A DNA stretch of 51,581 nucleotides, the filler included, from Bilabrum cf. latius (Eukaryota), in assembly GCA_965178125.1 (NCBI GenBank). It is 2 parts of 2 records of this genome, joined end to end, with 100 filler letters (N's around TTAATTAATTAA, not from the genome) between each part and the next. Parts side by side here need not be neighbours in the genome. Positions count along the whole stretch, not along the records: positions 25,923 to 51,581 come from CBCXTV010000038.1; 1 more part is not named here. One strand, written 5' to 3'. Below are positions 850 to 48,655 of this stretch, piece by piece; position 1 is the stretch's first letter, and each line of letters begins with the position of its first letter. The notes below the pieces were generated by a model. That model did not search any database. It saw nothing but the letters and a program-made list of their open reading frames with translations, and was not told the DNA's origin. Position numbers and translations under genes: made by a program.

Positions 850-1423
850 TCCTCGGCAGCTCCTGCATCGGAGCCTCCTGTCGAGATTCGATCGCGCAAC
901 GTCGTTCCTTACATTGCTTGCCGTCGCATGTGCCGGGCGGTGGTGGGTGTGCGTGTTCGCCGAAAGTTCCCGGCCTCGTCTTCCTCAGGAGAGCTCCTCG
1001 ACCCGAAATTGGCAGCTCAGCGCTGCCGTGGCCGATACAGTACCCGTGCACGGCCAGTTGGCAGCTACGCGCTGCCGTTGCCAATGTCGTCCGCACGAGA
1101 GCAGAGTGGCAGCTCAGCGCAGGCGAGAAACCGCGCTCGCAATGCTGCGAGGTGTATTCAATGCTGTGCACGTGTCTATCCCTCTCCCTGGTTTTGTCTC
1201 GCTTGCGCCAGTGTGACCGCAGCAGAGCGGGTGCTTCCCGTGCGTCTTCAGCTTTGAGCACTCCTCCAGCGACAGGAAGGCATTCGCTTGCTCTCGCTCC
1301 CCGCCTGCGTCCTATCCCTCCCGGGTATCTTCAGAGGCCACAGGCAGTGCGAAGCTTGGCAGCGGGTCCGTCCGCGTCGTTTCGGCTGTGAGCGATCTTC
1401 TGCCCGGTTCCTCACGCGTCATA

Positions 1424-25822: not shown

Positions 25823-25922
25823 NNNNNNNNNNNNNNNNNNNNNNNNNNNNNNNNNNNNNNNNNNNNTTAATTAATTAANNNNNNNNNNNNNNNNNNNNNN
25901 NNNNNNNNNNNNNNNNNNNNNN
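25823..25922. other. Artificial contig-joining spacer
   Basis: 44 N + TTAATTAATTAA (stops in all six frames) + 44 N = exactly 100 nt. Confidence 0.97.
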
Positions 25923-26184
25923 CCGGTGGAGTGAAACTGGCGTGTCAAGCCCTGGGGAAACGCGTGGAATCAACAAGCTTTCGAACAACTTGGCCCGTCG
26001 AACCCTCATGAGAAAGTTCCGGGGCGTTCGGGGTGGGCTGCGTGCAGAGCTTGACTCTCCCTGAAGTACTTGCGCGTGAGCTCGCACCAAGGAACAATGG
26101 AGAAGAATGAACAAGACCTTCTATCAATGCGCCGGCGCCTGCCGAACACTTGCGCAACTTTTCAAACCAAGTGTGGGCGATACA

Positions 26185-26620
26185 CCCCCCCCCCCCCCCC
26201 CCCCCCCCCCACCCCCCCCCCCCCCCCCCCCCCCCCCACCCCCCAACCCCCCCCCCCCCCCCCCCTCTAAACCACCCCACCCCACCCCACCCCACCCCCA
26301 CCCAACGCCACCCCAATCCCCTCCGCCCACCCCCATCCACCCCACCCACCCACCCACCCACCCACCCACCCACCCACCCACCCACCCACCCACCCACCCC
26401 CACCCCCACCCCCCACCCCCACCCCAACCCAACCCACCCCACCCCACCCCACCCCACCCCGACCCGCCACACCCCACCCCACCCCACCCCACCCCACCCC
26501 AACCCACCCAACCCCACCCCACCCCACCAACCACCCACCGACCCCACTCCACCCCCACCCCACCCCATCCCACCCCACCCCACCCCACCCCACCCCCACC
26601 CCATCCCACCCCACCCCACC
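26185..26620. repeat. Poly-C / (CCCA)n / (CCCCA)n low-complexity tract
   Basis: Directly visible; G-rich on the minus strand (G-quadruplex-prone). Confidence 0.95.
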
Positions 26621-27007: not shown

Positions 27008-30000
27008 TCACGCCGCTGCCTTGATCATCGCGTTGATCTTGGCGGCGATAGCTGGGGCAACCTCGCTGATGGTGAAGTTCTTATCCTTCAAGGCTTGGAG
27101 AAGTTGCTCTGCATGCTTCCTCTTGGCTGCCTCATCTTTCACCTTGGGGAACTCTACGAAGACTTTGTGCAACGCATACGTCAAGCTCATGGTCGCGTAA
27201 CCCAAGTCCCGGGACGTCGTTTAGCAGCTTTAAAGGGCCGACGGCTCCAACACTGTCCCTCCGCTCTGCTTCACGATCGCTTGCGATGCCCCGATCATCT
27301 CGTTCAACTTGTTTGCTGTCGGTGTGAGCTCGGCGAAGTGCTTGTTCAAGATCAACGCCTTGAGCATATCCTTTTCCGGGAACGTGTCGGTTTTGGCCAC
27401 ACTCTGCCACTGGGGGCAACCAACCCGACAAGGCATCGGACAACGCGCCCATGTGGTTCGCCCAAGTCTGCCGAATCTCGCTGCCGAGAGTGTCTGCGTG
27501 TTTGCATCGCCGTCTGGATCATCGCGTCGGCATCCGTCACCTCCACAAGCCTCATGCGGCCAAAGGTATCGTCATGCTTGAACACGTCTCCGATGCCGTT
27601 CGCGTTGGCGGCCTGGACCTTTCGGGCGCACTTCGCGTGCGCCACGTAGAGCTGACGTAGACCTGGAACTGCCATGCGTTATTGGAGACTCAAGACCCAA
27701 AAGCGCCAGCCCATGGCGCAATGCACTTTCGAGGGCGTCGCGCGGGGTGCTGACTTGGGCTGGCCGCTTGTCAAGGATCGCTGCCATGGCGAGGGGTTGG
27801 CGACGGGCCGGCAAGGGGTTGGGAGGGCTGGTGAGGCGCTGGCGAGCGACGAGTGGCCGGCGTGGGGTTGGCGACGGGCTGGCGAGGTGCGGCGAGGGGC
27901 TGGCGAGGAGGCTGGCAAGGTGCTGGCGAGGGGCGAGGTACTGGCGCAAGGCTGGCGAGGGGCTAGCGAGGGGGGCCAACCTGGCTGCAAGATCGACCGG
28001 CTCTCCTCGTTCGTCGCCGCGCTCCAAGCCGCGTGCAAGAGGCGCTGAGCCCCCTGCAAACGCATGAAGTTGCTCACGAACCTCACCTCCTGATCCATCC
28101 TGCTGTCGTCGAAGTGGGCGATCGCATCGAGAAGCTTCTTGTACTCCTCCGGGTCCTCGCAATCGCCGTCGGCCTTGAACACCTCGTTCGCCTGGCGGAA
28201 GTTGGAAAGGGTTGGGCCAAGTGACCTGTGACATGCGCGGCATACAGATGCTGAGATATTTCTCAAGCGGGGCGCGGCATGACGAGGATTGGTTGCTAAG
28301 CGCAATGGAAAATAAGAGGCGAAAAAAATGGTCGCGGCGGCGCCTTTTCTTCCCACGCGGTGTACATCGGCTTAAGCAACTCCTGCGCTTTTTCGACCAA
28401 GCCCGCCACCTCATCCCGGAAGCCCGCGACCTTGACACTGAGGCGCTCGAGCGCACTCTGATCCAAGCCGAACTCTGTCAACGCGGTTTTCTGCGTGTCC
28501 GACGGCGCCAAGCCCTGCCGCAAGAGCTGCAAGCCCCCCACTCCGCATGCCCCAAACGTCTACAACGACCCCTTCCCTCCGTCGGTATCGCACCCATGGT
28601 CCACATTGCACATCTGCCCCTGCTTTTGAGACTCGTGGCGCACATGGACATGCATGCAAGCACACCCGCTCACAAAAGCCTTCAACAACTGCACACGCGC
28701 TGCGACTTCCGGCAAGGTCATGTCGGCGACCGTCTTCGACGTCTCCTCCTGCACGGATCCGAACGCACATGCATGTGTGACCTGTCCCTGTCGGTCTCTC
28801 TCCGGACTCCTGGCTGCGCAACGTGCAGTCCACTACCTGGCATCGGCGAACACATGCCATATGCCTGTCCTTACCAACTGGAGCGCAGCTTGACGCCCAT
28901 ACCAAAGATATCCCACCGCTGATTGGCGAACGCCTGTATCCCACCCTTCGCCCCTACACCTGCGCTCCTGTCCGCCCGCCCTGCCACCGATCTGCCTGCC
29001 TTCTCGCTTGCCTGCCTCGCTCTGCGTGCCTGCCTGCCGCTTTCTTGCCTGCTGACCTGTCTGCCTGCCTGCCCACATGCCACCTGGCCGGCGGCCAGAG
29101 CATATCCGTCAGCAAAGCGAAAGGGGGTGGGGGGTCTTGGATGTGAGGACCCTCCTGCCCGGACCCGAAAGAGTCCCGCGCACGAGCATGACGTTTGTAG
29201 ACGTCGATCAAAAACGCCATGCCCTCTCGCATGGGTGGGCTGAGCAACGTGGTCTCGTTCAAGGCAAGGATCGCGTTCCACAAGTCGGACACTGCGTCGT
29301 AGGTCGACTCGTCCTGCATGTAGGCCTTCCTTGAGAGGACGCACAAGGCACTCACAATCTCCTGGAGGACGTTCCGAAGCCCTCCATACGACTTGAGCTC
29401 TACCGACAACTTCACAAAGGCCTCGTCCGCAACCCTTAATTTGGTAGCGACAGCGGGGAAGAACTCCAACGGGTTGGGCACCAACTCCTCGAGGTCCTTC
29501 GGCAACATGGCTTGCACTGGCTCCAACACTGCACTCACTTTAGACGCCATCTCCTCCTTGCGCACGAAACTCTCGAGAAGCTCTTGGGCTTTCGAGAGCA
29601 ACCTTCGGCCACCCGGCAACACCACCAACGAGTGCGCGGGCGAGGCGGGCATGTTCACTTCCTTGTCGCCATGCGTGCACTCACGAAAACCGAAGATGAC
29701 CATGACTCGAAAACGCTTGCCGCAAAGTGCGCACCCTTGCCAAGACGCACAAACGCAAGCGAAGCGCAATCCCAAGCAAGCGAAGCGCAATCCCAAGCAA
29801 GGCGTGCACCAACGCATCTCTTTTTCCATGGCTGTCCTGAATGGCCCCCGCAAGGACTCCAGAGTCGCGTCGTCGCAATTCACAATCACATCCACTGCCC
29901 ACACCGCCGTATCGACCCGATCGTCCAAGAGGACGCCATCGCGCAAGTCCGCATCCAAGAGCTTCTCCCTCATGCGGTCCAGCAAGTCCTCGTTGTTCTC

Positions 30001-32170
30001 TCGTGTCAATGCTACCAACCTGTCGCGGAACGCCTCTGTCTGCACTTTGACAACCTCGTCGGGGGTGTAGACCTCCGATACGCGCCGCTGGTCCAACAAC
30101 TGCCAGAAACTAGCGCCATCCGCCATGCTCATCTTCGTGGCATAACGCCCCTTCTGCAACCACTCTGGGTGATTGAGCTCCACCATCGGCGGGACGGACA
30201 TGAAATGGGTTGTGGCATCGAAAATCGCCAAGAAGGCCGGTGAGCGGACGCCATGCTTGTTAATGCCGCGAATGAGTTCTGCTGCAGCATGGATTTTCTT
30301 CGACGCTGCCCTCAAGTCGTCGTGATTTAGCAAACCGTCCACCTCGTTCTGGTTCAAGGCCGCCTTCACATCGTCTTCCAACCTCGCAATCGCCTTGTCC
30401 TCGAATAATCAGCCCCGCCCGCAGACCAATATGCTTACATGTTACATGTTGCATGTAGAATGATGACCGCGGGCCCTCACCACACCCAAACCGACACCTC
30501 TACTTGGACCGTCTTACCTACATATACACGGGCGCGACGCGCCTGCGCCCTTCGCTCGCCGCCGTAGAGCCGCGGATCATCGTTGGGCGCTGCCTCGTAC
30601 TTCGACACGAACTCTTGCACCTTCTCGAAGATGCACTGCTTCGGGCGACCGCGAGTCGGCGCTGCACTGCCGCTGCCGTCAACTTGCCCTCCACTGCCGC
30701 CGCTTCCAAGTGCTGAGATGCCTTTCCTCTTGCTAACGTTCAACCTCTGCGGTCTCTGCGCTTGTGCCTTCGGGGCCGGAGCGGCGTGCGCGACATGCTG
30801 CGGCTGGGCGGGCGGTGGGGGCTGCGGTGTGGCCGCGCCCGGGCGGAACGCAGCGAAGCTGAACCCTCCGCTGTCCGAGGGAGCAGTGGTCGGCGGTGAC
30901 GAGCCCATCGGCGTAGCGGCCTTCGGAGGCACACATCCACCGAACACATTCAAGGAACGCGGCTCCGGCTGTCAATCCTTGCTCCATGTGTCCCTCTGAT
31001 TGGGTGCGCAAGGCCTGCCGTCTGCTTGCCTGCGCAACGCCGCGAGTGCAATACAACACACAAGTTGCAATGTACTCCGCTGACCGCCCTCCTGTGTGCA
31101 GACTGTCCTGTACATTCCTCTCTGTGTGTGCCCCCACACCCGCCAACCGCATCCCCGCGCACCCGCACACCCGCCCGCCAACCCGCCTGCCCGCTAAAGG
31201 GGGCTGTGAGGCGATGACTGGTCTAGGCGCGAGCGGACGGGCGGGCGGGCGAGCGCCCGCATGCGCGCGATGTCACCGGGCGCCGCGTCCGCAACCCGAA
31301 AATGCGGGCGGGCGCCCGCAAAACTCCCTGCCCGAAGGAGACTGTCAACTGGTCTCGGCCAGCCTGGCCGCCCGCCTACCCACCCACACGCCCACACTCT
31401 CTTGTCCAACCGCTTGCCTGCGCCCGCCCGCTTGCTGGCCCGCCCGCCCGCCCGGCAACATGCGCCCGCAACACCTCGCGCCTCCGGCGGGCGTGACGCC
31501 ATCAACTCGTCCAAGCTGACGCCCGTGGAGGCCGTCTGCAAGAAGCTGTTGGCGATGTCTTCCATCATATCTTCCATCTGCTCTTCGCCGCCAAGCTGGA
31601 AGCTTCCGTCATCGACTTCCTGGTGGAGGGCTGATGTCAGCACACGTGCCCTCTTGATCTTCCACACCCTTTTGGCGGGTACAAGCACTCCGGCAATACC
31701 ACCACCCACATCGGCCCATTGATGACCTAAGTTGTTTGTCCTGTAGTCGCCAAACTGCTTTGTATACTCGGACAACGGCCACACTTCGTCCTCGGGATCT
31801 TCGACCCGAGTCTCCCGCGCCCTCGAGAAGATCAACTTCTTCGCGTCGTCTTCGCCGCCCCAAGACACACGACACTCATGGGTGCCAGCGCGGGTCATGC
31901 ACTGCACGCACTCCTGCTGAAAGTGCATATACAACTGGTGCACGTCGGGGTTGCTCCCCATCGCGGTCTTCAAGGACTCGACCGAAGGGTACTTGCCGCG
32001 AAAGCGGGCCCGGTAGGTTCGAAAGCACACCCTGCACAAGCTGCCCACATTTTTGCCCGTCTTGCCGTCGGGATCATATCCCCAAACCCTCTTGAGACCT
32101 TGGCCTTTGAGCACGTTGTCTTCCTCGCTGTCGGCGACGCCGCACAATGCGCAGACAGCCCCGAACACCG
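27008..32170 (-). CDS. Large multi-exon hypothetical protein (boundaries approximate; further 5' exons likely up to ~32900)
   Basis: Protein-like exons: CALCGVADSE...CRVCFRTY (~31480-32170), ~30540-30960, ~29150-30400, ~28000-28750 and ~27008-27670, ending KINAMIKAAA*. They are separated by gcct/gccc-rich intron-like segments. Confidence 0.6.
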
Positions 32171-33487
32171 TCGCCTGTTTGATGCTCCTCTCCAGTCTCC
32201 CCGAGTACAGACAGCAAGGACTGAGCGCGCGACCGTTGAGCCGCTGAGTCGAGAGGGATGGCAGGCCGGCGGGGCGGGCGGGCGGGCGACATTCCGTCGA
32301 ACGATGTAAGCCTTCTTTGCGTGAGCTCGATCACATCCGGTATGCGAATTCTGGAGATTCCGTTTGCACGATCGCAAGCCATGATGGCTCTACTCAAGGA
32401 GACGCCGGGTCCTTCCCGCCGCCCCAAGGAGCGGGGCCACACTTGCTTCAGAACTAGAAGAGGCCCCAAGTGGAAACGACCTGGAGCCCTTTTCCGATTT
32501 CGGGGCCATGGCGGCGAGCTCGCGCACCCAACCGCCGCGCTCCCCCCTGAGCGTGTTCGCCACCAAACGCCTGACCACACGCTTGCGCCTGGAAAAAAAA
32601 ACAGTAACAAGCAAGGTGGCTGCTGAGCGGCTGCGACGCGCGTCGTCCAACGGCAAGCTTGCCCAACGTCGCCACCCACGGCCGACGCCAACGCCCTTGC
32701 TGCCCGCAATCATGGCCTGTACTCGATTGCCCCATGGCGGCCGCAAGCTTCTTCCTGCCTGCAACCTGCCTGCTCGTGCCTCCGCCTGGCAACCCGCTTG
32801 CCCTCCAACTGGCCGTATGCGGTCTGGCACCCACCAAATACCACTGTCAACAGAACCTGCTTCGTGTAACGAATCAGCGTCCGAGGCCGCTCTGGTGGCC
32901 ATCCCCACAAACACAGAGCGTGCTGACCTGGTGTGCTCCGTTTCTCTGCATACGACGGTTGCCCATGAGCTTCCCGGCATGGCTGTCTCTGCTCTGGTGC
33001 CCAACCCCAAACCCAGAGCTTGCCGAGCTGGCCTGCTTGATCTCCTTGCATACCACTGTTTCTCGCAAGCCTGCCTGCATGGCTGCAACCGCTCGTGCGC
33101 ACAATAACCCCGCAAACACAGAGGCTGCCGACCTGGCGTACTTCCTTTTCCTGCGCACCGCGGTTGCCCGCAAGCCTGCCTGCATGCTTGTTTGCCATCA
33201 ACGGGTGCGTGTGCGTGTGTGCCTCCACCTGCTACCTGCACATGATCACGTCGGCCTGTCCCTTCGTCCGTCTTATTCTCTTGCCTATGTCAATGCCCCA
33301 ATGCTTGCTGCCCACATCAATGCGGCGAATGTCGACGTGTGCCCTGCCTGTGTCGGTGCCGCCCTGCTCGGATAGATGCCACAAACGCCGACGCCTTCAC
33401 AAGACGATGTCGCGGCCTACCCTTCTATGTCTGCGCGTGCTCTGCCCATGTCGCCCCTACCCCACATGAACACATGGAGAGCTCTCA

Positions 33488-36400
33488 CTAGATGTTCGTC
33501 TGGTCGTCGCTGACTCCATCGTTGCTGGCATCGTCCTCAGTGGCGACGGGCTCGGCCGGCGCCCGCTGCCAGACCGCGTCCGGCGACACCGCCGTGACCA
33601 ACGCCATTGCGATCGGGATGAGAGGGAACGCGCTGAACGCGTTGCCTGCCAGACAACTTGCCACTGCGTGGCTTGGGAGCTTCCGCACATCCATATAGGA
33701 GATGTCATAGCCGATGAACTGCAGCAGCTCCATGCCGTCTAGCTGTCGCATACTCGTGTGCACGCGGCGGCCCGCGAAAATCGCCTCGAGGTCGTCGCCC
33801 TCGATCGGATGCGAGGTGCTCCCGGTCCTCATGATGTACACGCCGCTGGCTGTCAATGTGGGAAGCTTGCCAATCCGCCAAGGGTTGCGCGAAGTGGCGC
33901 CCTCTGGCGCGTGCCGCTTGAGAGAAAAGTTGACGTCTATGAACTGCGGGATGGTCACGTCATCCGCCAAGTCCTGGGGCCAAACGTGGTTCACATAAAC
34001 CAACACTTCCCATGCCCGTTGGTCCAGGTGGCGGCACCACTGCAAGGTGTCCCGCGGCGCTGGCCATTGCATGCCACTCGCGTCGAACATCGCCATGTGA
34101 TCCATCTTATAGGCTGCATCGCTGCCTGCGCGCACACCGGTAATGCGCCCGGGGGTCTGCCACACACACCTCAAGCGACAACTCAACACTGCCAACCATC
34201 TGCAAACCCCTGCCCTGCGCCCTGGGACTGCCTGCCTCTGATGCCATTCTGTGCGCAACACCCGCATGACCATACAAACGAGACTTGCCTGAGACCGATC
34301 AAGGGGCGGCCTTCGTTCTGGTCGCCATCGCGGGACCGGTCCATGACTCGCAAGCCCTCTGGCAAGAAGAAAGAATGCCAAGGCTCCGCAACCTCCGGAC
34401 CGAGCCGGGTCTCCTCCATGAAGCGCCTGACCGTCTCTACCTTCCCCTGGTTCGCGGGGCCGAGGAACGCCAACCAATACAGCCGTTTGCGAGCCGCTCT
34501 GCTGCCGTAGGACTCCGCTGACAAAATGAACTCCTCCACTACACCGTACCCGGCCTCTCGGAGAACACGCTGGATGTAGCAAGCATCCGACTCGGCTGCG
34601 TCAGGTACTTCTTGCGCGAGGGAGACCAAGTTCTCGAGCAACACCGCGTCAGGGTGGTGGGCCCGGATGTGCTCGATGACGGTCTTGAAGCTTTCCCCTG
34701 TCTTCTCCTCCTCGCGCTGAACGCATCCTCTGTTCGCGGAGCAACTCGCGTTGAGAGAACTGCGGCTTTTGCAGGTAAAGCCTGCGACGAGGAACCGAGT
34801 GTGGCCGACCACGCACTCCTTCTTGTAGCGCTGGCAGAAGGCCATGCCACTGCTGAGGGCGGCGTTGTCCTTAAAGAGGTTGGCAGACTTGCTCACGCTG
34901 TGGCTCTCGAATTGGTCCAGTAAGAACTTCACCTTAGGCCGGTCGATCTCGCACCCCCAAGCCTGCTCGAGCTGCACCTCTTGTGAGTACTCCTCTTCCC
35001 AGAAGCGGCACAATTCCTCCACCACGATCGCAAAGATGTCAGTGCCTGATGACATCGTCCCGAAGGTGGACACGCCCAGCGCGCGCAACCGTGCCATATT
35101 GGAAGTCAGCTCGTTGACGAGACGCGGCGACAACTTGTGGTGCATGGCCTCAATCGCAAGACGAAGCGGGCTCCTGTACCGCGCCGCGGGCTGCTCTGAC
35201 GAGGCCTCAATCGCAAGACGAAGCGGGCTCCTGTACCGCGCCGCGGGCTGCTCTGACGATGACACAGTCGCAGCTTCTCCCGCCCCGCCTGCCACGCATG
35301 GCTCCAATGGCAAGGTTGGCTGCGCTCCCTCTCCGGTTTCTGCCTCCCGGCTCGCCTGCGGCGGTCCTGGCACAAGCGTCGACGCCTGCGACGAGCCGAC
35401 CTCTTGTGACACCGCAACGGCCTCATCAGCGTCCACCACGACCTCTGCCTCCTGCGGTCAGCATGCAAACTCTCAAACAACCCTAGCCCCAAGCTTCCGG
35501 CCTGGGCCTGGGCCCGGGCCCTCTCAAAATTCAGCCCGCGACCCAAGAAACACCGATTCTGACGCCTGCGCATCTTCAAGCTGTGGCTCCTGCCGCCCAT
35601 TCCCGGACACCCTGTAATCGACGGCAATTACCGGCAATTACCGGCCAATTACCGGCCAATTACCGGCCATTTTCCGGGCCAACAATTTCCGGGCAACCCC
35701 AAACCGTCCAAGACCGTCCAAGACCGAACCGTCCAAGAACCGTCCAAGACAGTATTTTTTTGAGGATGTCTCGAGCGAAACTTTTTCGGCCACCGTCCAA
35801 GGCCGGAAAATCCCCTTGGACGGTCCAAGCCCGAAACCGTCCAAGACCCAAAAAAGACAAAAAATCGGGACAGAAATTGCCCGGAAAATGCCCGCTAATT
35901 CCCGGTTATTCCCGATACTTCCCGCAAATTCCTGGCGGCTTCCGCAAAAAGCGAGCCGCAAGACATACCACACCGGGCTTAAGAGACCTTCCTCGCAACT
36001 GTTGCCTGCCTTGTTAAATTGCGCGCGTCCCGACAGACTGAGACACGACACGAGCACTGGAGATGCTCCTCCAAAGCAACAGGATGCGACATGCTACTGA
36101 AGAAGCCTTCCAAATCCAAGGCGGACGCCTGCCGCACGACGTCGTCTTCGTCGTCCTGGCCATGGCGAACCGGAAGCTCTGAGATGTCCTGCGATGCGCT
36201 TGCCTGGCGCCGCGGACGCCGCGGGCGCTTTGCGGGCGGCTCGCCCGTCGGATGCGCCGCTGTCTGTCCCGGCGCTGTCGTCGAACCTGCGCTGCTTGCT
36301 GACGCCCGCTCTGCGTTGCTCGCCCCCTGCGGCTGCACCTCTACCAACGGCTGCTCGCCTACGGCTGCTGCCAATGCCCCTGCCTGCATCTCCGCCGTCT

Positions 36401-36866
36401 CCCTGGCTACCTCTGCCGGCACAACCGCCGCCGCCTCTGGCTGCATCTGCCCTGTCTCCATGGCCACCGCCGCCGGCGCTACGGCCGGCAGTTCCACCGG
36501 CGCCCGAGTCTGCATGGCTGCCGCCTCGGCCGCTGCATCCGTCTCTGCCGCCGGCTCCGCCGGCGTCTCTGGCACCGCCGCCGCCTCTCGGTCCTCGGCC
36601 TGCAAGGCCGCCGCCTGCGTCTCCTCGGCCCCTTCTTCCGTTACTTCTGTCGGCGCCTCTACCGCCGCCGTCCTCTGTGGCGCTACTGCCGCCGCCTCCT
36701 CCGTCGGCGGCCCCTCTGCATGTGTGGCGGGGCGGCGAAACATGGACCTGATGTCGGGCGCCGCCGTGTTCTCGCTAGGCGGGGGGCGCACGGCCGCTTT
36801 CGCGCGCGGCGGGGAGCGCGACGCTGCTTTCCTGGGCGGCGGGGGGTGCTTGGCCTGCTTCCCCAT
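33488..36866 (-). CDS. DNMT5-type C5 DNA cytosine methyltransferase, three exons, no SNF2 domain seen
   Basis: Motif I FGTMSSGTDI, II WGCEID, IV LVAGFTCKSRSSLN, VI VLLENL, VIII YGSRAARKRLY, IX LDGMELLQFIGY, X LAGNAFS. In-frame GC-AG intron at 35452-36128; second intron at ~34127-34300. Confidence 0.85.
35617..35985. repeat. Repeat-rich, lower-GC insert inside the methyltransferase intron
   Basis: Four ggc(c)aattacc units, then about six accgtccaag units and the inverted repeat cttggacggtccaag. Confidence 0.75.
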
Positions 36867-37971
36867 TGCGCTAGGAAGGCTTGGCTGGATGCAAAAGTGC
36901 TGCGCCGCGCGGTCACAGTGGTGTATTCTCGGCTGTCTTCTTGCCTGCCTGAATGCCTGCCTGCCTGCCTTGCCTGTGGAATGCCTGCTAGTGTCGGTGT
37001 CTTCTTGCCTGCCTGCCTGCCTGCCTGCCTTGCCTGTCTTACAAGCCTGCCTTGACTGCCTGCTGCTTGCTTGCCCCGCCTGGCTTGTCTGCTCCTTGGC
37101 TGCCTTGCGCCTTGTTTTTGACCCTGATGCTGTATGCTATGGGACATGTCGCGCAGTCGTCCTGCCGAGTGTCTGATGCAAAGGGCATTGCGCTTGGCTC
37201 CTCGACCGCCCGCCCGCCTGCCCACACCCTCTGGTCTGTCGGCAATCAACCTGCCCCATGCCTCGCGCGACACGCACGGTCATGCTGACCAAGCCGCCTG
37301 ACCTCCCCTGCACGCCCATAGCCCATGACCATGGCCCATGCCCCTGTCCCCAAGGCCTGGCCTGGACTGCCTGCTGCCTGTTTACCGGGATGCCTGCTCC
37401 TGCCGCCTGTCCGTTGGCTGGACCGACAACTCCTGCCAACCAACTGCGCCGCCAACGGTCATTGATTCTAGGCCATGCCCCCTGAACCCCCAACGCTGCC
37501 GCATATAAGGACACTTTTCTGTGTCGCCTTGCGATACAGGCCGCAAGGCGTCTCAAGGGCAGACGTCAGCCGGCTCGCTGCGCGGGCACGAGCACGCAGA
37601 TCGTTGCCCACCTAAAGCCGCTGCCCACCTCAAACCAATTCCCGGATCAAGCCGCGGCTCCCCTCGCAGGCACGAGCACGCAGATCGTTGCCCACCGAAA
37701 GCCGCTGCCCACCTCACACCACTGCCCGGACCAAGCCGCGGCTCGCCTCAAGCTGCTGCTCACCTGCTCAAGCCGCCGCCCGATCACCCCACAACGCCGC
37801 TGCTGACCTCATAGCCTATAGCGTCGCTGCGTTGCCGCCGCGCTGCAGAACCTGACTCACTTAACCCATGAAGATATGATGAGTGAGTCAAGTGCTGCAG
37901 CGCATGGCATAGCTGCGCCGCTGCTGCGCTGCCTCACCCACCAACGCCGCCGCTGGATTACTGCTGTGCTG

Positions 37972-37973
<2 letters not shown>

Positions 37974-38033
<60 letters not shown>
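37974..38033. repeat. (CTG)20 microsatellite
   Basis: Directly visible. Confidence 0.98.
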
Positions 38034-38034
<1 letters not shown>

Positions 38035-38127
38035 GCCGCTGCTGCGCTGCTGCGCAGCCGCCTGGCCGCTGCCTCGCAGCCGCCTTGCCGCCGCCTCGCC
38101 GCCAACTGGCCGCTCCTCCTTCTCCAT

Positions 38128-40057
38128 CTACAACGGGCGGCTCCTCGTGATGGTGATCGTGATGTCGAAGCCCTGGTGCTGGAAGCGCAAACTGGCGGGC
38201 CGCTCACGCTGCACCTGCTCCTCGCCGACACGGCCATCGCCATCGCCATCGCCCACCGGCGCCGACAACATCGGCAACGGTGGCAAAAGCGGCGGATAGC
38301 GCCGCGGCACCGCCACCACCTCCTCGTCGCTCGACTCCTCCGTGTCCTCCTTGCCGGGGGGGCGGACCAAGGCCGACCGCATCAACTCCCGCTCCTGCGA
38401 CGACAACTGTGGCACCCGTTCTCGCTCCTCTTCTTCTGGCGCAACAATGGCATCGGAAGCCGTCCTCTGCGGCGTCGGCGACGGCGGCGGCTTCGCAGGC
38501 CAACTCAGCTTCGGCATCGGCAGCGGCGCTCGCGTACGCACCGCCGGCGCGGCCTTCGAAGTTGACAACAGCAGCGGCGACTGAGACGGCGCCTGTGCAC
38601 TTGAAGAGCTCGCGTCCGGCGGCTCCTCCCCTCGCGCCTCCAAGGTATGTTGTCTTACCGACTCTATTCGTTCTTCCCATTTTCCGTGTTTGGTTTCCCC
38701 TTTGTTTTTCTTTTGCACCGCCTTTGGCTTCGGCTGTTGCTGCTGTTGCATCATGTCCTGCTGCTCGTGCTGCTGCGTCTGGTTCTGCTCCTCCACTGTC
38801 GCCCCTGGCGGCTGCTGCTGCGGCTGCTGTTGCACCTGCAACTGCGGCGTCGCCTTTCGCATCTCCGACTGCGACTCATCCGACGACGACACCTGCTGAG
38901 CCTCCGCACCTGTCGTCATATCCTCCTTCGGGTCCTGCTCAGCATCGTCACGCACCGCCTGCTGCTTCGTCACCGCCTCTGGCACCACCGCCGGCTCTGC
39001 TCCTGTGGCACCGCTAGGGTCTGCTTTGGCATCATCTCCCGCAAGTGCTGCGGCTGCACCATCGTCGGCTTCCCCTGCTGGCCGGAAGATGTTGCTGGCC
39101 TCTGCTGCTGTTGCTGCTGCGCCTGCTGTTGTTGCTGCTTCTTCGTCTGCCTTGCGGGCTTCTGCTGCCGCTGTCACTCCGTCGCCGGCTTCTGCTCCTG
39201 CTGTTGCTGCAGACGCAACGGCTTCTGCCTCCCTGCGCGGCTTCTTTCCTGGCGGCGGCGTGCAAGGGGAGGGCGGCCGGGGAGGCGGCGGCGGCGGCAC
39301 CAACGGGGCCTTGGGCTGACCGCTGCTCCCCGACACCGCATCCGGCCAAGCTGACGGCCTCGAGCCCTCGCTGCGCTGGCCGCTCCCATGGCGGCTGCGC
39401 TGACGGCTGCGCTGACGGCTGCGGTGGCGGCTACGCTGGCGTCCGCGAGAGCCGCCGCGCTGGCTGCTGCGAGGGGGGCTGCGCTGGTCGTACTCGCGAG
39501 GGTCGTTCCAACCGTCGCCGTCGCGGCGACGGTCCCCGCCATGGGCATCCTCCTCCTTTTCAAAATCAGTCTTTCTATCTTGTGATTTTGATCTTTCATG
39601 TTGACCTTTTACCTTTGTACCTGTCGTCCTCAGCGTCTCTGGTTCCTTTCTGCTTCTTTGTGGTCCTCCTGGCGGCGGCGCACTCCGCCAGGTGCCACTT
39701 GCATGACGATATGGCCAAGGCGGACTCGTCCTCCCCTGTACTTCACTTGCTTCGCAGCCAAGTTGCGGGTGCACGCCGGGTTCAAACAATATCCATGCTG
39801 CTGCAAAGATCCGTCGGGCCCGAAACGGCGTCCAACATAGGGAAACTGCTTGCACCTTTTACGGGCACGCGGATCCATGGGAAACCTGGCTCATCTGGCC
39901 CGCGTTTGGTCGCTGGAGACAACTGTCGTAATGCCACCGATGTCATGTCACCGATATGCCGCTGTCTTACCCACTGTCTCACTACATACCGTTTCATGAT
40001 GCGCAACGCACTCAGTACTCTACCTGAGTACGAGTGTACTGATGCACAAACGGCCAC
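38128..40057 (-). CDS. Low-complexity Arg/Ser-, Ala-, Gln-, Glu-rich hypothetical protein (5' part uncertain or frameshifted)
   Basis: Long open frame 38128-39855 with SRxR repeats, poly-Pro and Q-rich tracts; upstream overlapping frames look globular. Confidence 0.45.
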
Positions 40058-40589
40058 AAGCTACCCCATGGATCTTCGAGCCCGCAATACCGTCGGCAAG
40101 TCCCCACGATGCGCGCGCGAGGATGCATCTCCTCTGGCTCCGGCGACGTCATCGCTAGCGGCTAGCGGGCGGCCCAACTGCCGGCAAGCGCCCGGGGCGC
40201 CGAGGCGCCCGGGCTCGCGGCCGGCCTGGCGGCTAGCGGGTCGGCTGGGGTGGGGCGAGCGGCCTGCAAGAAAAAGGCTGAGATTGGCGAAGATATCCAC
40301 ACGGCGGCATGCCGCGCGTGTGCCCTCTTTCCTGCGCGCTTGCCTGCCTACCTGCCTATCTTTCTTCTGTCCTCACCTGCATGCTGAGTGCTCCCTGCGG
40401 CTTACCCGCCCGCCAATCCGCTTCCTCAATCGCCCTGCTTTCCCTGCATTGGAGAAGACTGACGCTGCGCTGCCTGCCTGTGCTCACTTCGTCTCCTGCT
40501 GTGCCTGCGAGCCTGCACGCTGTGGCTATCGCCTGACATGCGCCGCATATACAATGTCACCCAAGACGCGCGCGCATGCCGCGTGCAAG

Positions 40590-41394
40590 TCACTGCCGGC
40601 CCGTGAGAACGTCGAGGGTCACATGGCGCCCGCTGTCCAACTTATCCGCGATGTCCATCAACTCGGTCAACGACAAATCCGCCATCGGTAACCGACCTAT
40701 GAGGTCGCGCTTCAAGCCGGTCACCGCCATGCCGCGCCTGCGCAACTCGACCTTCATCTCGTCCCTGGTGTAGCTCCCCATGACGATAGCCCTCCAGAGC
40801 GTCGCCTTGTACCTCTCGAGGTCCCGGTCCGTGGAGTCCTGCTTCTTGCGGTTCGTGCCTCTCGCGGTCCTGTGCTGCTTGCGCTTGTCGCCATCGAAGA
40901 CCTTGAACACCTTGATCGCCATCGCGAGCCATCGTCGCGCTTGCTGCCTGCAACACGACCACCGCGCCCACGACGAGAAGCCCGAAGACGCCCGCGATGA
41001 CCGCGACGAAGATCAAGAACCCCTTGTCGCTACACGCGCCCGCCCCGTACACCGCCACGAGCACCTTGGGGGCCATGGCGTAGGCGCCATTCGCCTCAAT
41101 GCGGCCCACCATCGCGCCGCTGCAGAAGTCCTCGCCCCTCAAAACCGCCGCTCCCGAGACTAACGCGTTCGCCTCCGTCGCCCCCATCGCGATGCGGAGG
41201 CCGCACGCGACCCATGCGCGCGAGCCGATGGAATGCCTGCGGCGCGACACGCGATTAGACGACGACATCCCTGCCTGCCTTGCTAGCCATGGCCCGACCG
41301 TAATGGCGGCTTGGACAACTTTTGACGTGAACTGCAGCCGCCTCGTTGCACACGTCCTGCCCATCCTGCCGACCATGCCAGCCATGGCCCCCAT
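40590..41394 (-). CDS. SAP-domain ORF preceded by a hydrophobic (TM-like) segment in another frame; possibly degenerate
   Basis: YTRDEMKVELRRRGMAVTGLKRDLIGRL is a canonical SAP motif; upstream FLIFVAVIAGVFGLLVVGAVVVL. Confidence 0.65.
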
Positions 41395-41504
41395 CTAGTA
41401 TAGCCATGTCACCATGTCCGGGGCTCGGGAGGCAATCGCGCCCGCCTAGTCCCTCGCCGCGCCCGCCGGGCGGTGCAAAGCGCATCGTCCGCACTGCGGC
41501 TATC

Positions 41505-41505
41505 G

Positions 41506-41556
<51 letters not shown>
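41505..41556. repeat. (GCCT)13 microsatellite; imperfect GCCT tracts also near 29000, 36950-37070 and 41850-41970
   Basis: Directly visible. Confidence 0.95.
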
Positions 41557-41557
<1 letters not shown>

Positions 41558-41827
41558 CTCGTGCCGCCTGCCGCCTGCCCGCCTGCCGCGCTGAGGGCGG
41601 TGTATGTACTGACGCGGGGATGCATGGAAGCGGCGGCGGAGGTGATGGGCGGTGGGAACTGCTCTTCTGTGACTGCCTGCTTGCCGCTTGAGCTGGGCCC
41701 CTGTCTGCCGCGATGCGCTTTCCATGTGCAAGCATAGTGCTGTACTGTGCGGCCTGCCCGGTCTCGAACACCTGGAAACTGCTTTGGCGACCTTGCTGAA
41801 AGCCTGCCCGGTCGCTGGCTCCTGACA

Positions 41828-44800
41828 TCAACTGCACGCGCTTGCAGGGCCTGCCTGTCTGTCTGCCTGCCTGCTTGCGTTCCTCGCCTGCCCGGCCCTC
41901 TTCCTCGCGCGCCCGCCTGCCTGCCTGCCTGCTTGCCTGCCTGTCTGTCTGCCTGCATGCTTGCACGCCTGCCTCCCTGGCAAGAGTGCCTCCACCCTTT
42001 TACGGCATGCGGCAGCCCTCTGGTCGACCTCTGCCTCCGGCAGCAAGGTTAGGTCCCGTGGATTGATGCCAAAAACATGGGCGTCTCGCGCATCCGGCCG
42101 CTCGCTCAACTCCAGCCCGGCGAGGAGCCACAACTTCAACCGCACCCTGCACTCATCGGAGGTCATCCGCCTAGGCCCGGAGCCCAAGTGGAGTTCCTTC
42201 TTACACACGGCGCGACCTGTGTCCCACTCGTTGACATGGAGCTTGCAAATGCAACCCCAGCCGCCCGCCTTCAACGGCGCCAGCTGCCAACCGAACCACT
42301 CCTGCTGCCTCGGTGTCCTTCCGGAGGAAGCAGCAGCAGCGCTCGCGCGCTCTGCCGCCTGCCGCCGGGCCGCGGGCCTGGGCCCATCCATGGCAACCGC
42401 AGCGCCTGCAACACAGCGAGTGCGATCGCCTCCTCGTCCTCCTCCGTCCCCGACGCGTCGGCGTCCCCGCCGTCGCTGTCAGAGCCACTGCGCCTGGCAT
42501 ATGACGAGGACTGAGAAGCGAAACGCAACTTGGCTGGCATGAAAAGCAAACCATGTGACTCAAGCCGTCGTCTGGCGGACATCCACACATTCGAACACTC
42601 CAGAGGACCATGTCATGACCATGCTACCATGTCACATGTCATCGCCTCTACACATTGCTAGCAGGCAAGAGCGCTGCGGGTTCTTCGGGGGAGACTTCGA
42701 CGACGCCGAGCGCGGCTCCTCGGGCTTGGGTCGTGGGCGCTTTGCAGCGCGCACCTCGTGGGCCTCTTGCGGGACGGCGAACGCCTCGGCAAGCCGCTGC
42801 CCGAGACTGACGAGGGACGCCGGAAAACTGGCCATGTCGTTCGCCGGCGCTGGTTGCTGTGGCGCTACGACGCGCCTGGCCAAAATGTCCTCCTGACCGT
42901 TCACCCGCAGTATCTCCATTGACGACAGGGTCCCGACATAAGGCTTGACATCTACCGCAGACACGTTCAAGTGTGCAGGCCGCCGGGGGGCCCACAACGA
43001 CGGCAACAACTCCGACAGGACAACGGTCGCCATCAAACCATCCTCGTTGAACTTCACATGCAACTGCTCCCCGACCGATACCAGCTCGACGCCGACGACG
43101 ATGTTCGGATCGCGCTGCCGCTTGAACCCCACACACAAATAGCGCGAGGACCAAGCCGCTGGCTGCGTGTACTCGGCCTGAAGATGCAACACGGAGCCCA
43201 CCGCGCAATGGCTCGTCACGAAGGATCGCGCTCGAGCATAGACCTGGAGCAACTCGGTATAGATTGGCCGATGCCTTTCCTGACAAATGCCTTTGTGAAG
43301 CCGGGCGCAACTCAACAAGCGTGGGAACTTCGCATCGGCAGCTGGGTGCCCGCGGTCCTCGACCACAGCCTTATCGCGCAAGGACTGGCGGAAAATGTCG
43401 CAATAGCTCCGCAAGCCGCCTGGCTCGTCCACGCCAAGTTTCTCGCAAACGTGGCGACGCGCGACATCTGGCCGCAGAGGGTGGTCATAGGAGCCTAAGC
43501 CCCAGAGCGCCTGGCGCAAGCGCGACGGTGCGCGAACACAAAAGCGATGCGAAACGTTCAGAAGGAACATCGGAAACCCTCACGTGAGTCGCGTTCACCA
43601 CATTGCCAGATATGTGATGTTTCTAAGAACAAGTAACCTGACAACGACGACTTTTCAACCGTTACCCTTTATGTGCTACGCAATGTGTATTTCGTGCGGA
43701 ACCAACAGCGCCTCCTTGGCGTCATAGGTCGTGCGCTTCTGCTCCTTCGCCGAGTCGGCGTCCTTGTTCTCCGCTGCCTGGCGTTGGCACTGTGCGACCG
43801 CCTGTCGATTCAAGGCGTCCTTCTGCTCCACCGACAAGTCCTCGTGCCACTCGCGCATGGCCTCCCGCCTGACTGATAGATGCTCGTCTCGTGACAACTT
43901 GCGCCCCCTCGCCTGCCGCTCCGCCTCGCAACGCTGCGTCATGTGCAACAGGTGGCCGCGCCCCAATGAAGGCGTCGCTTGTGGGCGCTCGGCTTGCGCA
44001 ATGATGGGGGCCCCGTCCTCCACGGTTTCCTGACGAGTGATGACCGAAGGGTGACGACCGCCCGCGCCCAAGTGCTCCTTCAAAACCGAGGATAAGTACC
44101 CAGCGCTGACAAGGCGTTCCAAGCTTGGCGTCTTCCCCGGCACTGCCTTCCGGAACGAACTGAGCAACCGTTCGATATGCATGTTGGTGACTCGCGATCC
44201 CCGCGCCCACTTCCTTAACGCCTCGCGCAACACGTTGTCTTCTACAAACGCCGCCGAAGATGGATACTTGTCCCGCAGTTTGCGACCCATGCCTGCATCC
44301 AAGCAACACATCGGCTGTCGCCAGAAGCTTTCCGCGAACGCCAGTCGGCCTTCTTCGGTGCATGTCGGGTGCACGAGTTCGGCAAGCGCCCACGGCCAAG
44401 TCTCGTACTCGATACCGAGCCGCCAGTACACCTGCGACGCCAAGCTGAATATCTCGGTTTGCACTGACCAGAGAGCGTCGCGGATTTCGTCCTGCGTGGC
44501 GCCGGCGGAGCAGTGGGCTAACAAGGACGCGAGGGGGGACTCCGCAACTGGCTGCCTGATCATGTCTGCCCATGCCATGAGCGCGGCGTGCACTGGGGAA
44601 GTGTTAGGGCGCCTCATGTCGATCAACGGGGTCGAGGAGTCGTCCAAGTGCTGGAGTCTCTGCAACAAATGGTCCAAGGGCTCTGTAGCGAACGCCAATC
44701 TCAACATCACCATTTTCCTGCCCTGGTCCTGAAGCACACACCTGACCCGGAAGACTTTCCTTTTCATGAGGATTTTGTAATCGATGTCAGCCGGTGCACC

Positions 44801-47074
44801 GTCGTCGACTGCCGGGGGGTCTGCCTCGAGTTGACTGCCGAATGCGCGAAGGAAGACCCGGGAGAAGCCTCCATGAAGCATGTCGGCCATCTGCAATTCG
44901 GCGTTGGCCCGGGACATGCTACCCCACCGGGATGCCGCGGGCACCCCCGAATCTGACATCAACATGCCGACGCCCTGAACCAGAGCCAAGAAAAATTTCT
45001 CGCAAATGTCAGCGCGCTCCTCCGAACCATGACCTGTCACAACGTGGGAGAACCGTGGCCTTCGGATGTCCCCATTGACGATGGATAGAATCATCTGCTT
45101 TCGGTTCTCCAATGCGCTCTCTTGCTCTGCGTCGAAGAGGGCGTCGCCTGCCACGGCGTCAAGCCTGCCGCGCGTCCTATGGGCTTTTCGGAGCAAGGTG
45201 TGCTCCAACACCTCGCAAGTGTGCTTCCTCCACGCGGCCAAGTCTGCGGCAGCGACCGCGCTCACGTGAAGCACCTCAAGCTCCTTCGCACATGAGTCAC
45301 ATGAGCCCCACGAATCGGATGACCGAGGCGTGTCTGAGTCTGCGAGACTTGACTTGACTTGCCCCCCCCCTCTCCGGTCTGTCGATGCATCGCTGCTGCA
45401 CCCCCGCCCCCGCCTTCCCGCCGTCTGCGAGCCCCGCCCGCCGCATGGCAAAGTTGCCCACCATGTCTGCCTTGACGCCCTGGCCCCCGGGCCTTGTCTA
45501 CCCCAAGCGCCTGCACCGCGCCCGCTCGCGCTGCCCGCCGGCCCCGTCTGAGGACAAACTGCGGCTGGCTGGCACGACCTGCGCAAGTTGGCCTATCCTC
45601 GAAAACCATACGGCGCAGAGTCTCATGCAAGCGGTTCAAGTGTGCTGTGGAGGCGCAAACGAACTTGATCGCATGCAAGTCGCCGACCGGGCGGGTGCCG
45701 ACAGCGCCGATGACGATGCGGTTGAGCAAGTGCGCGGCGCAACCGCTGGGGGTGTAGAACACATTGGCTGGCAGAATGGCTTGCGTTGCGGCGAGCTTGC
45801 GCTTACAAGAACTCGCGTTATCCGGGCACTCGTGCACGATAACGAACGGCACCTGCTGCGCAAGGGCGCACAAAGACTGCGACGAAAAGGCTGGGACGCC
45901 GTCATCTACCGCTGTCATGATACCAGACGCTTTCGTATTCTGCAACACCCGGGGCGGCACATGAATGACGCGCCGCTTCGTGCCTGTGCCTGTGTCATAG
46001 AGAAGCTCGACTTCTTGCGCAAGAAGCTCAACGACGCCGCGGCCCGGCAGTTTCCGCGCATTTGTCCTCGCCAAATACTTGTCGGCCGGCAAGGCAAGAA
46101 ATCGGTCCTTCTCCTCGTCGTAGACCAGATACCGGGCCCATTGGCACACAGCGCCAATCATAACGCCAAACTCCACATGCACCGGTGTCGCGTCATAGTG
46201 CATGGTTAGGACGATACCGCCACAGTCTGGGTCGCTTGCCAAGGAGCTGACGCACGACTGCACCTGAGCATCTTGCACGTCATGGTGAAGACCGGACACA
46301 GCTGTCAAAGCGCGCAAACGGTTCCCGCCTGTCACCTCGCCGAGCTCCCCGCCACGCTGACGCTGAAATCCAACGACGCCCCGCCCTACGACAGAATAGG
46401 CCAACCGCAACGTCTGGGCAAAATCCCACTGATTGCTATGTGGTTGACTCGCGGTCTCACGTGGCGTTCCACCGTGCCGCTTGTGGAAGTGTCGGCGCTT
46501 CGGGTTCGCGCTGGCACGGCGCGCCCCCTTCGCAAACTTGTCACCGGCGTGCAAGCCATGCATCTTGTTCCATGCTTCCCCGAGTTTCACCAAGTGTGTT
46601 TTGGCGCGGTCGCCCTGCCGGTGTGCCATCTTCACCGTCCGCTGGCAACGCACGAACTCCATACGCTGGTGCTTGTCATGGAAGCGGGACTGTGACTTCT
46701 GCGGCAAGGCCCTGAAACGCGTTGGCCAGAACTCTTCCTGACCGCAAAACGTTCTCTATAGCAAACCATGCAGAAGCGTCGCTGAACATAACTCGCTGAC
46801 CCGGTCTGCAACGCCTGCCCTGCCATGAGGAAGAAGAAAACAATCTCTCAGACATGCCCCTACCACTTCTGATTTCCTGCATGACCCCCCCCCCCTCCCC
46901 CCCCCCCCCGCCCGCATCTTGTCGGCGACGCTTCTGCCCGGCGACACGCGAGGAAACATCATGCGACGAGGCGCCGTCTACTCCCTCGCCATCAAGCACG
47001 TCGGGCGCCAAGTTCTCGAATCCTTGCGCAATGCCAAGCCCGATCGAGGGATCGTCCAACTCGAGCTCGTCCAT
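41828..47074 (-). CDS. Multi-exon hAT-like (CxxH-class) DDE transposase with HMG-like and Cys/His C-terminal domains (ends approximate)
   Basis: MHYDATP (D1), CPDNASS (D2), GCAAHLLN (CxxH), SRWGS and NMHIERLLSSF (E); HMG-like EAMREWHEDLSVEQKDAL; C-terminal GWGCICKLH...CKKEL...LKLWL. In-frame introns at 45284-45597 and 43511-43711. Confidence 0.7.
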
Positions 47075-47929
47075 TTGTGACAATCTGGCACGCTTGTGGA
47101 CCGGAGGGGCGCGACGCGCGTGCGCTGCCACGGGCCGAAAACACACGGGAGGGGGGCTTGGCGGACTGAGCCAAATGCGGACGCGCGCGAATCGAAATAA
47201 CTCGGACTCGTGGGCAGGACCCCTTGCCTTCTGCGCTGCTGAAAACAAGTTCTGGCCGCTCCCTGCTGGAAATCTGGCTGTGTCCAAGCTGCCCACATGC
47301 CCCAAGTGTGATGACAAACCCCTGCCCTGCCTAAGCTGCTCTGGCCAAAACTCCCCAAGCTGCCCAACTACGCCGCCACACCCAAGCTGCCCCGAGCCGC
47401 CCTCCCCTTGCCCGCCCTGCCCCGGCTGACTGGCTCTGCCCAAGAGGCGCCCCGGCCGCGCTGTCTCATCACCTGACCCCTGCCCCAAGCCCGCGGCTAA
47501 CCTCTTTTGCGCGCGAGCAAAGCCGCAAAGGAGGGTCCGGAATGTCATGTCCGGAAAAAGCGGTGTCCGGCCGTCCCTCAAGACTCTGGCTCGTCGTCAT
47601 CCGGCGCCACTCGTATGTTACAGAGCAACGTTCTCACCCAAATGCAATCGCCCATCGCGCCCCGCAAGTAGAAGGTCAAGTAGGGCGGGCCTCCGTTCGG
47701 GTGCGGCTCGACGGCGACCAGCCAAACCGGCCATGGCAGCGTGTTCGGCGGCGGGATGTCCGGCGCCAACCACGACGGGTGCGGATCCATGGCGAGCTTC
47801 GGGGGGGGGCGCGACGCCCCGAGCGAGAAGCACGAACGGACACAAAAAAAGCCAAACAGCTGCAGAAGATCGCGTCCCCGCACCACCTGCCTTCATGCCG
47901 TGCACTTGAGTCTGCAACATACCAATCTT

Positions 47930-48315
47930 GCCCTTTTACTTATGCTCTGTATTTTTCTGTACAGTGGTTCCTTTCTTTAGCTTATGCCACTTATGCCTCG
48001 AAATTATGATGGGTTTGTCTTTTCTGCCTTTATCTTCTCCCGAATGTCTGTTTTTTTTGTTATCTTGCTGTTCTCGGGGTTCTTTTTTGTCCCAAATTTC
48101 TGTCTTTTTCCGTCGTTTTGTTTTTTTTTTTTTTTTGCGTTTTTTTCTGTCCGGAATTTCTGTCTTTTCTGTCTTTTCTGTCTTTTTCGTCTTTGGGGTT
48201 TTTTTTTTCCGTCCCGAATTTCTGTCTTTTCTGTCTTTTCTGTCTTTTTCGTCTTTTGGGTTTTTTTTCCGTCCCGAATTTCTGTCTTTTCTGTCTTTTC
48301 CGGGCCGTCTTTTTC
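47930..48315. repeat. T-rich imperfect tandem repeat (gtcccgaatttctgtcttttctgtctttt units)
   Basis: About four ~60-65-bp units; sharp GC drop relative to the flanks. Confidence 0.9.
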
Positions 48316-48655
48316 GGCTGGACCAAACAGCCAGGGCCAATCGGTAGCACAACCGCCCGCCTCAAGCCATGCGCGCTCCGTGTTTCGCGCTGCTGCGCGC
48401 CCCGATTCCAATGCAGGCAATGTAGCACGTTGTCTCCGACTCCCTCGGAGGGGGAGTGTGAATCCGGAGGCCCAAGGGACCCCAGTACAGACTCAAAAGT
48501 CCCCCGCTTGCTTGGGCCAAGCCCGACCGTCCGCCCGTTGCATGCTTTTCACGTGCCGGTCTTTGCAGCCGGCTTGACCAGGTTCCCGCTATGGAGGGAA
48601 AACGTTTTCGCACCGAGCTAGCAGCTCTTGCAGTGAAGCCTCCGCTACCCTCAGC

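Follow-up and report, generated by a model that had tools for sequence, protein, structure and literature searches.

Analysis of a stretch of DNA from the genome assembly of Bilabrum cf. latius (GCA_965178125.1, here G000) showed a cluster whose core is made of three co-oriented, intron-containing genes, predicted to encode in this order a hAT-like DDE transposase, a DNMT5-type cytosine methyltransferase (DNMT) and a large zinc (Zn)-finger protein. We give a probability of about 0.6 to the reading that this 20-kb stretch is most of a giant (at least 20 kb) cut-and-paste dinoflagellate DNA transposon carrying a DNMT5. The genes, their catalytic motifs, the DNMT5 affinity and the recurrence of the gene order at other loci were established by sequence comparison, and together the genes would form one mobile unit. 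The window, that is the whole stretch analysed (51,581 nucleotides), consists of two unlinked contigs of G000, C80 (positions 1-25822) and C81 (25923-51581), separated by an artificial spacer at 25823-25922 (N44, 12 bases, N44); the sequence to the left of the spacer is therefore unlinked to the cluster, which is located wholly on C81, a 25.7-kb contig. All four genes named by an earlier note on this DNA (a hAT-like transposase, a SAP open reading frame (ORF), a DNMT and a large gene) were found on the minus strand within 27008-47074, the SAP match being below its cut-off, and two extra low-complexity ORFs (38128-39858 and 36866 to about 36085) were found inside the same span.

The exons of the transposase gene are the following:
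46915-47074, minus strand: probable first exon with its ATG at 47074, predicted from sequence only and not covered by homologs; its 3' border is approximate and a 1-base indel lies at 46954.
45600-46737, minus strand: exon of the RNase H core (D at 46194, D at 45822, CxxH at 45741-45732), by homolog matches.
43717-45283, minus strand: exon with the helical insertion carrying RW (W at 44926), the catalytic E at 44173 and HMG-box-like helices, by family matches.
42670-43510, minus strand: exon of a Cys/His-rich, beta-rich C-terminal region, by family matches (C-terminal profile E 7e-43).
41990-42492, minus strand: last exon, a small Cys/His/Trp motif domain matching six family members, whose stop is uncertain where it enters a GCAG microsatellite.

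Full-length homologs (1280-1440 amino acids) tiled four exons, at about 46725-45562, 45298-43673, 43525-42887 and 42298-42065, and one exon, of 521 amino acids, matched 1086 protein clusters at E<=0.001, 74 of them at E<=1e-30. The order D..D..CxxH..RW..E across a helical insertion is the hAT signature. The D, D, C and H residues were invariant in all 28 homologs that span the exon-2 core (among 150 representatives), from which the motif counts of this exon were taken, and in exon 3 the W was kept in 71/90, the R in 60/90 and the E in 88/97 of the covering rows. Compared with the PDB, the family profile gave 38 matches, all weak (best E 0.025), of which 35 were to HMG boxes and lay just after the catalytic E, and sub-threshold HMG matches of Pfam were present in 2 of 42 homologs; no hAT chain was found among the PDB sequence matches to this profile. 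In the Atlas, the core of homolog P0002 was nearest to hAT clusters (0.82-0.83, taken as a lead only), and nine of the ten best family-assigned matches shared the family or clan of the best one, which is hAT-type. No Cys/His finger pattern that could represent an N-terminal BED finger was found in the first two exons, and the transposase exon gave no loci in the metagenome or viral contigs searched. Judged by these motifs and profiles, the gene product is a hAT-like DDE enzyme of 1300-1400 amino acids with an HMG box, from a family without a Pfam entry, and it likely acts in the manner of a hAT transposase, as a putative member of that superfamily.

The second gene, the DNMT, is preceded by an ORF that may belong to it:
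36085-36866, minus strand: Ala/Glu-rich ORF predicted from sequence, which may be exon 1 of the DNMT or else a gene of its own; no homolog was found, and run X2 has a variant contig with 89% identity.
34300-35451, minus strand: DNMT5-type exon with motifs I, IV (catalytic Cys), VI and VIII (PF00145, 28.5 bits).
33488-34122, minus strand: last exon of the DNMT, with the target-recognition region and motif X according to alignment A3, and a stop at 33488.

PF00145 scored above its cut-off in the ORF at 34186-35457. The best PDB match of the window's DNMT exon alone was 7R76 (Cryptococcus DNMT5, E 0.0038), an intronless relative on contig C96 matched the same chain at E 4e-8, and the 12-row profile A3 matched it at E 4e-47, with 164 bits as compared with 59 for M.HhaI and 30 for DNMT1. 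The motif set is complete in alignment A3 (I, IV with its Cys, VI as EN, VIII as RxR, and X), and because motif X sits in the second exon the intron is needed for a complete DNMT; the assignment to an intron-containing DNMT5-type enzyme made by the earlier note was thus upheld. Motif IV is F-T-C rather than P-C and is likewise non-canonical in 7R76. No SNF2 domain follows, the stop at 33488 coming directly after motif X, and loss of SNF2 from DNMT5 has been reported for dinoflagellates in the available part of PMC12344493. By sequence this two-exon gene is a DNMT5-type C5 cytosine methyltransferase without SNF2. A relative was present in the transcriptome protein set of Heterocapsa arctica; a word-index search with the DNMT and Zn-finger exons among longer proteins gave no match, which is weak evidence, and the DNMT alignment gave no loci in viral contigs.

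The third gene closes the cluster:
27008-32509, minus strand: large multi-exon gene with a TGA at 27008 and an approximate start, by profile match to a DNMT5-linked family.

It begins with a CxxC..W..G.xCxxC and WP..Y motif (exon from 32174 to about 31475), continues as a long helical remainder, and gave no Pfam match in the four exon ORFs scanned. Against a family profile built from genes on C96, C84 and the metagenome contigs L146, L147 and L152, the window's exon reached a global score of 13.5 as compared with a shuffle maximum of 12.2 (0/60 shuffles reached it), and when the gene of C92 was added to the profile the score was 20.4, above all of 100 shuffles and 80 real ORFs. Local scores were marginal, 2/60 and 4/60 shuffles being higher. 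The gene is a probable homolog of the DNMT5-linked family on these scores. A motif pattern matching only the window's finger exon was not counted, as it was devised after the exon had been seen, and an Atlas match of this exon to FAM60A (0.84) was not used owing to low recognition.

We then examined the gene order at other loci in 35 of the 111 contigs of G000 (48.6 Mb in all), namely C62, C72 and C79-C111, for a total of 631,592 bases with C111 represented by its first 10 kb. On contig C92 (5198-19741, plus strand; L076-L077), a transposase, a DNMT and a CxxC..CxxC gene lie on one strand in the window's order. The C92 transposase has the window's motif order and was the best non-self match to the transposase profile among 9563 ORFs (E 0.006), and its divergent DNMT matched weakly (E 0.005). 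By these weak matches, C92 repeats the window's series of transposase, DNMT and Zn-finger gene, and so, probably, does C96, where a gene like the tail of the transposase is followed by an 11-mer array, a DNMT5 and a Zn-finger gene. The earlier note had named single-copy genes, or homologs that never co-occur, as an outcome that would speak against one element; this outcome was not observed, since homologs stand together in this order at other loci. DNMT5 relatives were located at 12 metagenome loci, four of which had at least 800 bases downstream of the DNMT, and in three of these four informative contigs a Zn-finger gene followed on the same strand after 250-500 bases (E 1e-3, 2e-11 and 4e-11). 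Two further observations concern these contigs: a tyrosine-recombinase-like ORF (1527-2378) stands ahead of the transposase on C92, and a MITE-like element (miniature inverted-repeat transposable element; L026) of about 440 bases with inverted repeats of about 100 bases, recognised by eye, lies at 1296-1734 of C96, downstream of the Zn-finger gene.

On C86 (L039-L041) and C91 (L042-L043), a transposase of a second hAT-like family (D..HA, RFDS and G-V-E motifs, with an N-terminal Cys/His finger) is followed by another large gene, unlike that of the window, and by a DNMT; the C91 enzyme is closest to M.HhaI. Comparison of all sampled contigs showed that a DNMT was present on 3/3 of those with a clear hAT-like gene vs 1/32 of the others (Fisher p 6e-4), in a count from which more distant hAT families may escape through the profiles used. 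With C92 counted, a DNMT is on 4/4 hAT-like contigs vs 1/31 others (p 1e-4).

These results also bear on a reading in which the stretch would be two adjacent units, a hAT-like element of about 12 kb (about 35.6-48.3 kb, transposase and passengers) between two low-complexity arrays, and a separate module of DNMT5 and Zn-finger gene, itself a mobile unit or an amplified gene pair, near which such elements tend to insert. An array does lie between transposase and DNMT both in the window and on C96, a 34-base inverted similarity joins the array at 48.2 kb to that at 35.85 kb (score 37, shuffle maximum 29), the metagenome contigs back only the link from DNMT to Zn-finger gene, and the finger gene stands alone on C84. 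However, the inverted similarity covers few bases and is low in complexity, no step in depth occurs at the array (X1 depth 101-151 on either side), C81, C92 and probably C96 share order and strand despite very different sequences, and a hAT-like gene without a DNMT was found on 0/35 contigs; we consider two units unlikely.

The single transposon that we favour has several results against it. No Pfam DDE, hAT or BED-finger match was obtained in the window's exons or in 42 homologs. The finger gene of C92, chosen by eye, was outscored against the profile by 60/60 shuffles when taken alone, and C92 entered the 4/4 count only after its weak matches had been seen. The gene upstream of the C96 DNMT resembles the C-terminus of the transposase by motif order only (E 0.16), and the joined transposase-like pieces of this contig were beaten by 1/15 shuffles, which is not significant. 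A transposase match was present in 0/12 metagenome DNMT loci, including L149 and L151 with about 2-2.5 kb upstream, and the 24 kb of C84 contain the Zn-finger gene but gave no match to a DNMT or a transposase. No terminal inverted repeat (TIR) with an 8- or 9-base target-site duplication (TSD) was found on C81, C86, C91, C92 or C96, so that the definition of TIR and TSD proposed in the earlier note came to nothing, and the window's two flanks gave no inverted match. No second DNA copy of the cluster was found in G000, which holds little of this organism. Contig depth, used below, is uncalibrated and is not copy number. The unity of the cluster as a giant DNA transposon, as put forward in that note, is thus favoured by the recurrent order and by a co-occurrence of DNMT and hAT-like genes beyond chance, and disfavoured by the missing TIR, TSD and second G000 copy. 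Separately, C84 (L064-L066) bears a 24-kb co-oriented cluster with long 11-mer arrays and Gln-rich ORFs, which may belong to a larger element.

C81 stops 1.1 kb past the last gene, and one end of the element may therefore be missing. Candidates with a 7-base TSD in C81 were rejected as chance matches inside genes or microsatellites, and a partner was searched for the TTATG motifs at 47940-48008, which face away from the cluster, with none found. C81 probably derives from a large dinoflagellate genome co-sequenced with the organism of G000, which would explain the lack of a second copy in G000. AG/G splice acceptors are a dinoflagellate habit, and the acceptors predicted in the cluster are mostly of this form. 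A named source organism was given only for one protein among the 10 looked up, which is of Prorocentrum cordatum or Polarella glacialis, and for one cluster member, of Heterocapsa arctica. The CpG observed/expected ratio is 1.0 in C81 and about 0.8 in sampled stretches of the large G000 chromosomes, shared repeats build up many small G000 contigs, and the runs containing the stretch hold up to 4 Gb of contigs.

Runs X1, X2 and X5, from two studies, covered 30/30 bins of 28600-48599; run X6 covered 18/30 bins at a depth of 2-6 and was not used as evidence. Depth in X1 was about 47-150 outside microsatellites, and diverged variant contigs had depths of 8-41 in X1 and X2. The window copy differed from the main form at 20 sites or more, with 16/20 transitions. 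The variants and private substitutions are what a single member of a young, multi-copy family would show, and differences between strains would give the same picture. A methylation trace in the share of CpG sites (8/16 transitions vs a 31% background) was set aside, since the 20 private substitutions, picked from 40 of 364 rows, are too few to show it. The same data bear on chance juxtaposition or a chimeric low-coverage contig. C81 (25.7 kb) has homopolymer-type indels relative to the runs and no listed run contig covers the whole stretch; the unbroken coverage of the stretch by three runs of two studies, the gene order found elsewhere and the Fisher p of 6e-4 for the co-occurrence of DNMT and hAT-like genes make an artefact a scarcely credible explanation. 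Small indels between C81 and the public runs lie at 46954, 46715, 42411, 40944, 30402, 29844 and 29755, and exact exon borders are therefore uncertain.

Exons of the cluster genes measure 0.6-1.6 kb and introns about 180-320 bases. According to the available part of PMC5890265, exons of Symbiodinium host genes are of about 65 bases and dinoflagellate genes are arranged head to tail; the long exons and short introns of the cluster are thus unlike Symbiodinium host genes, which we count for a transposon, whereas co-orientation by itself is weak evidence of unity because of the head-to-tail arrangement. Gene structure also matters to the view that this is an immobile host neighbourhood, in which a gene domesticated from a hAT element, a DNMT5c of the host and a large gene would have kept synteny and been amplified by segmental duplication. 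In the same part of PMC5890265, Dnmt5 paralogues are described as host genes that are expressed and rich in exons, and a head-to-tail arrangement as usual; no ends were located in the cluster, and many full-length transposase homologs are on transcript-like contigs of 4.4-6 kb. This view is made quite improbable by the DDE residues, intact across the 1086-cluster family, by the long exons and short introns, by several loci less than 30% identical within one sample on contigs made largely of repeats, and by the second transposase family, which pairs likewise with other DNMT types.

If the cluster is a single transposon, the transposase would excise and insert the whole unit through ends that were not located. 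If the camouflage model that PMC5890265 puts forward for retrotransposons with a DNMT applies here by analogy, the DNMT might methylate CG in new copies or their surroundings and so mimic the CG-hypermethylated host genome. The Zn-finger protein may be a DNA-binding helper, comparable to the product of the second gene in CACTA, Harbinger and Kolobok elements.

Comparison with the hAT superfamily (Hermes, Ac, hobo, Tol2) showed the same D..D..CxxH..RW..E order and hAT as the nearest named Atlas clusters. The window transposase differs in being about twice as long, with an HMG box, a long C-terminal region and no Pfam hAT match, and the locus differs in that a BED finger was not recognised, that neither TIR nor 8-base TSD was found, and that it carries further large genes. 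Cytosine methyltransferases are retrotransposon cargo in dinoflagellates and charophytes according to the available part of PMC5890265, and, like SymbioLINE-Dnmt and SymbioDIRS-Dnmt3 of Symbiodinium described there, the cluster would represent a dinoflagellate mobile element encoding a C5 cytosine methyltransferase. Those retrotransposon DNMTs are intronless and are a Dnmt3 (SymbioDIRS) or an orphan lineage (SymbioLINE), whereas the cluster is a DDE locus with an intron-containing DNMT5-type gene, and the statement in the earlier note that DNMT5-type enzymes are cargo of dinoflagellate retrotransposons does not hold for this source; Dnmt5 is placed in it among the exon-rich genes proposed as methylome writers. 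The DNMT5 catalytic domain without SNF2 ATPase is shared with dinoflagellate DNMT5c, which the parts of PMC9998398 and PMC12344493 at hand describe without a transposon context, in contrast to the window's DNMT, which is linked to a transposase gene and has a conserved gene as its partner. DNMT5a/b of fungi and diatoms differ by a C-terminal SNF2 ATPase, absent from the window DNMT.

Fungal KDZ/Plavaka elements reportedly carry TET/JBP, SAP and HMG cargo (the account is said to be that of Iyer et al. 2014), and the cluster would resemble them in having a DNA transposase with an HMG-type domain beside a DNA-modifying enzyme. However, the window transposase has hAT-like motifs, the cargo is a methyltransferase and the SAP ORF is not conserved. 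No KDZ Pfam match was found in the window exons or 42 homologs, and SAP is absent from related loci, where it has no counterpart; the KDZ-like argument from SAP cargo in the earlier note therefore falls.

A literature search, thin on subscription papers and Repbase, found no eukaryotic DDE DNA transposon with a DNMT5; the supplements of PMC5890265 and PMC9998398 may bear on this, and the parts of PMC5751038 and bioRxiv 10.1101/2023.11.30.569493 consulted had nothing on DNMT5-carrying DNA transposons. If true, the transposon reading would mean that class II elements, too, capture DNMTs, and that the captured enzymes include the family held responsible for writing the methylome of dinoflagellates; it would name a large protein family without Pfam annotation, and would allow a direct test of methylome origin by setting DNMT5 genes against transposases in existing assemblies. 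It is doubtful, and suggested here only tentatively, that much of the dinoflagellate 'host' DNMT5 (DNMT5c) repertoire is cargo of giant spliced hAT-like transposons, that several families took up different DNMT types independently, and that genome-wide CG methylation is partly written by transposon-borne enzymes.

The remaining features of C81 are the passenger ORFs, the arrays and the flanks:
40593-41394, minus strand: SAP-like ORF and an upstream hydrophobic ORF in another frame, with a 4-base indel relative to the runs at 40944.
38128-39858, minus strand: Gln/Ala/Pro-rich low-complexity ORF of 576 codons, with no Pfam match.
35625-35932: tandem arrays of 10-11 bases, just upstream of the DNMT catalytic exon.
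26183-26620: (CACCC)n tract beyond the last gene, whose status as an element end is only hypothetical.
47940-48300: four TTATG motifs (47940-48008, plus strand) and a T-rich 60-mer array (48076-48300), a subterminal-like region of the element itself or of its neighbour.
48656-49654 (start approximate), plus strand: 5'-truncated Copia-type pol fragment (end of the reverse transcriptase and RNase H), outside the cluster.

PF02037 matched the ORF at 40593-41012 with E 1.9e-4 and 21.4 bits, under the Pfam cut-off of 23.9, and the SAP ORF had no match at E<=0.05 in 34 other contigs or 12 metagenome loci; the low-complexity ORFs tested likewise had no counterpart in other loci. The SAP and low-complexity ORFs may thus be passengers of this copy. 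Nothing in the 35 contigs supported an origin of the SAP ORF as the end of a Copia polyprotein. The C-rich and T-rich/retroelement flanks described in the earlier note correspond to the (CACCC)n tract, the 60-mer array and the Copia-type fragment. From codon 27 onward, this fragment shares 36% identity with a pol ORF on C97 (E 1e-29); it is presumably of Copia type by its motifs, and places the cluster border between 47.1 and 48.6 kb. Arrays of 11-mers were found at the equivalent position in C96 and L143. Tandem arrays that repeat every 11 bases, close to one turn of the helix, but have unrelated units were seen in the window (35625-35932 and 27787-27973), on C96 (12000-12500), on C91 (16800-18000), on C84 and in L143.

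A possible coding fragment with no homolog found lies past the (CACCC)n tract (25923-26180, minus strand) and is truncated where the contig stops. C80 consists of a composite repeat that recurs on C72, C79, C87, C93, C94, C99 and C106; a Tc1/pogo-type DDE_1 ORF lies in it at 1217-3025. Strong PF00145 matches on C2, C3, C5, C7, C9 and C25 (L028-L036), several with an in-frame TAG, were set aside as unrelated, being in stretches of 35-42% GC within the main GC-rich chromosomes; these islands may represent endogenous viruses inserted in the main organism's genome. On C62 (12844-14820, plus strand; L159), an ORF has motifs like those of Plavaka/CACTA-type transposases.

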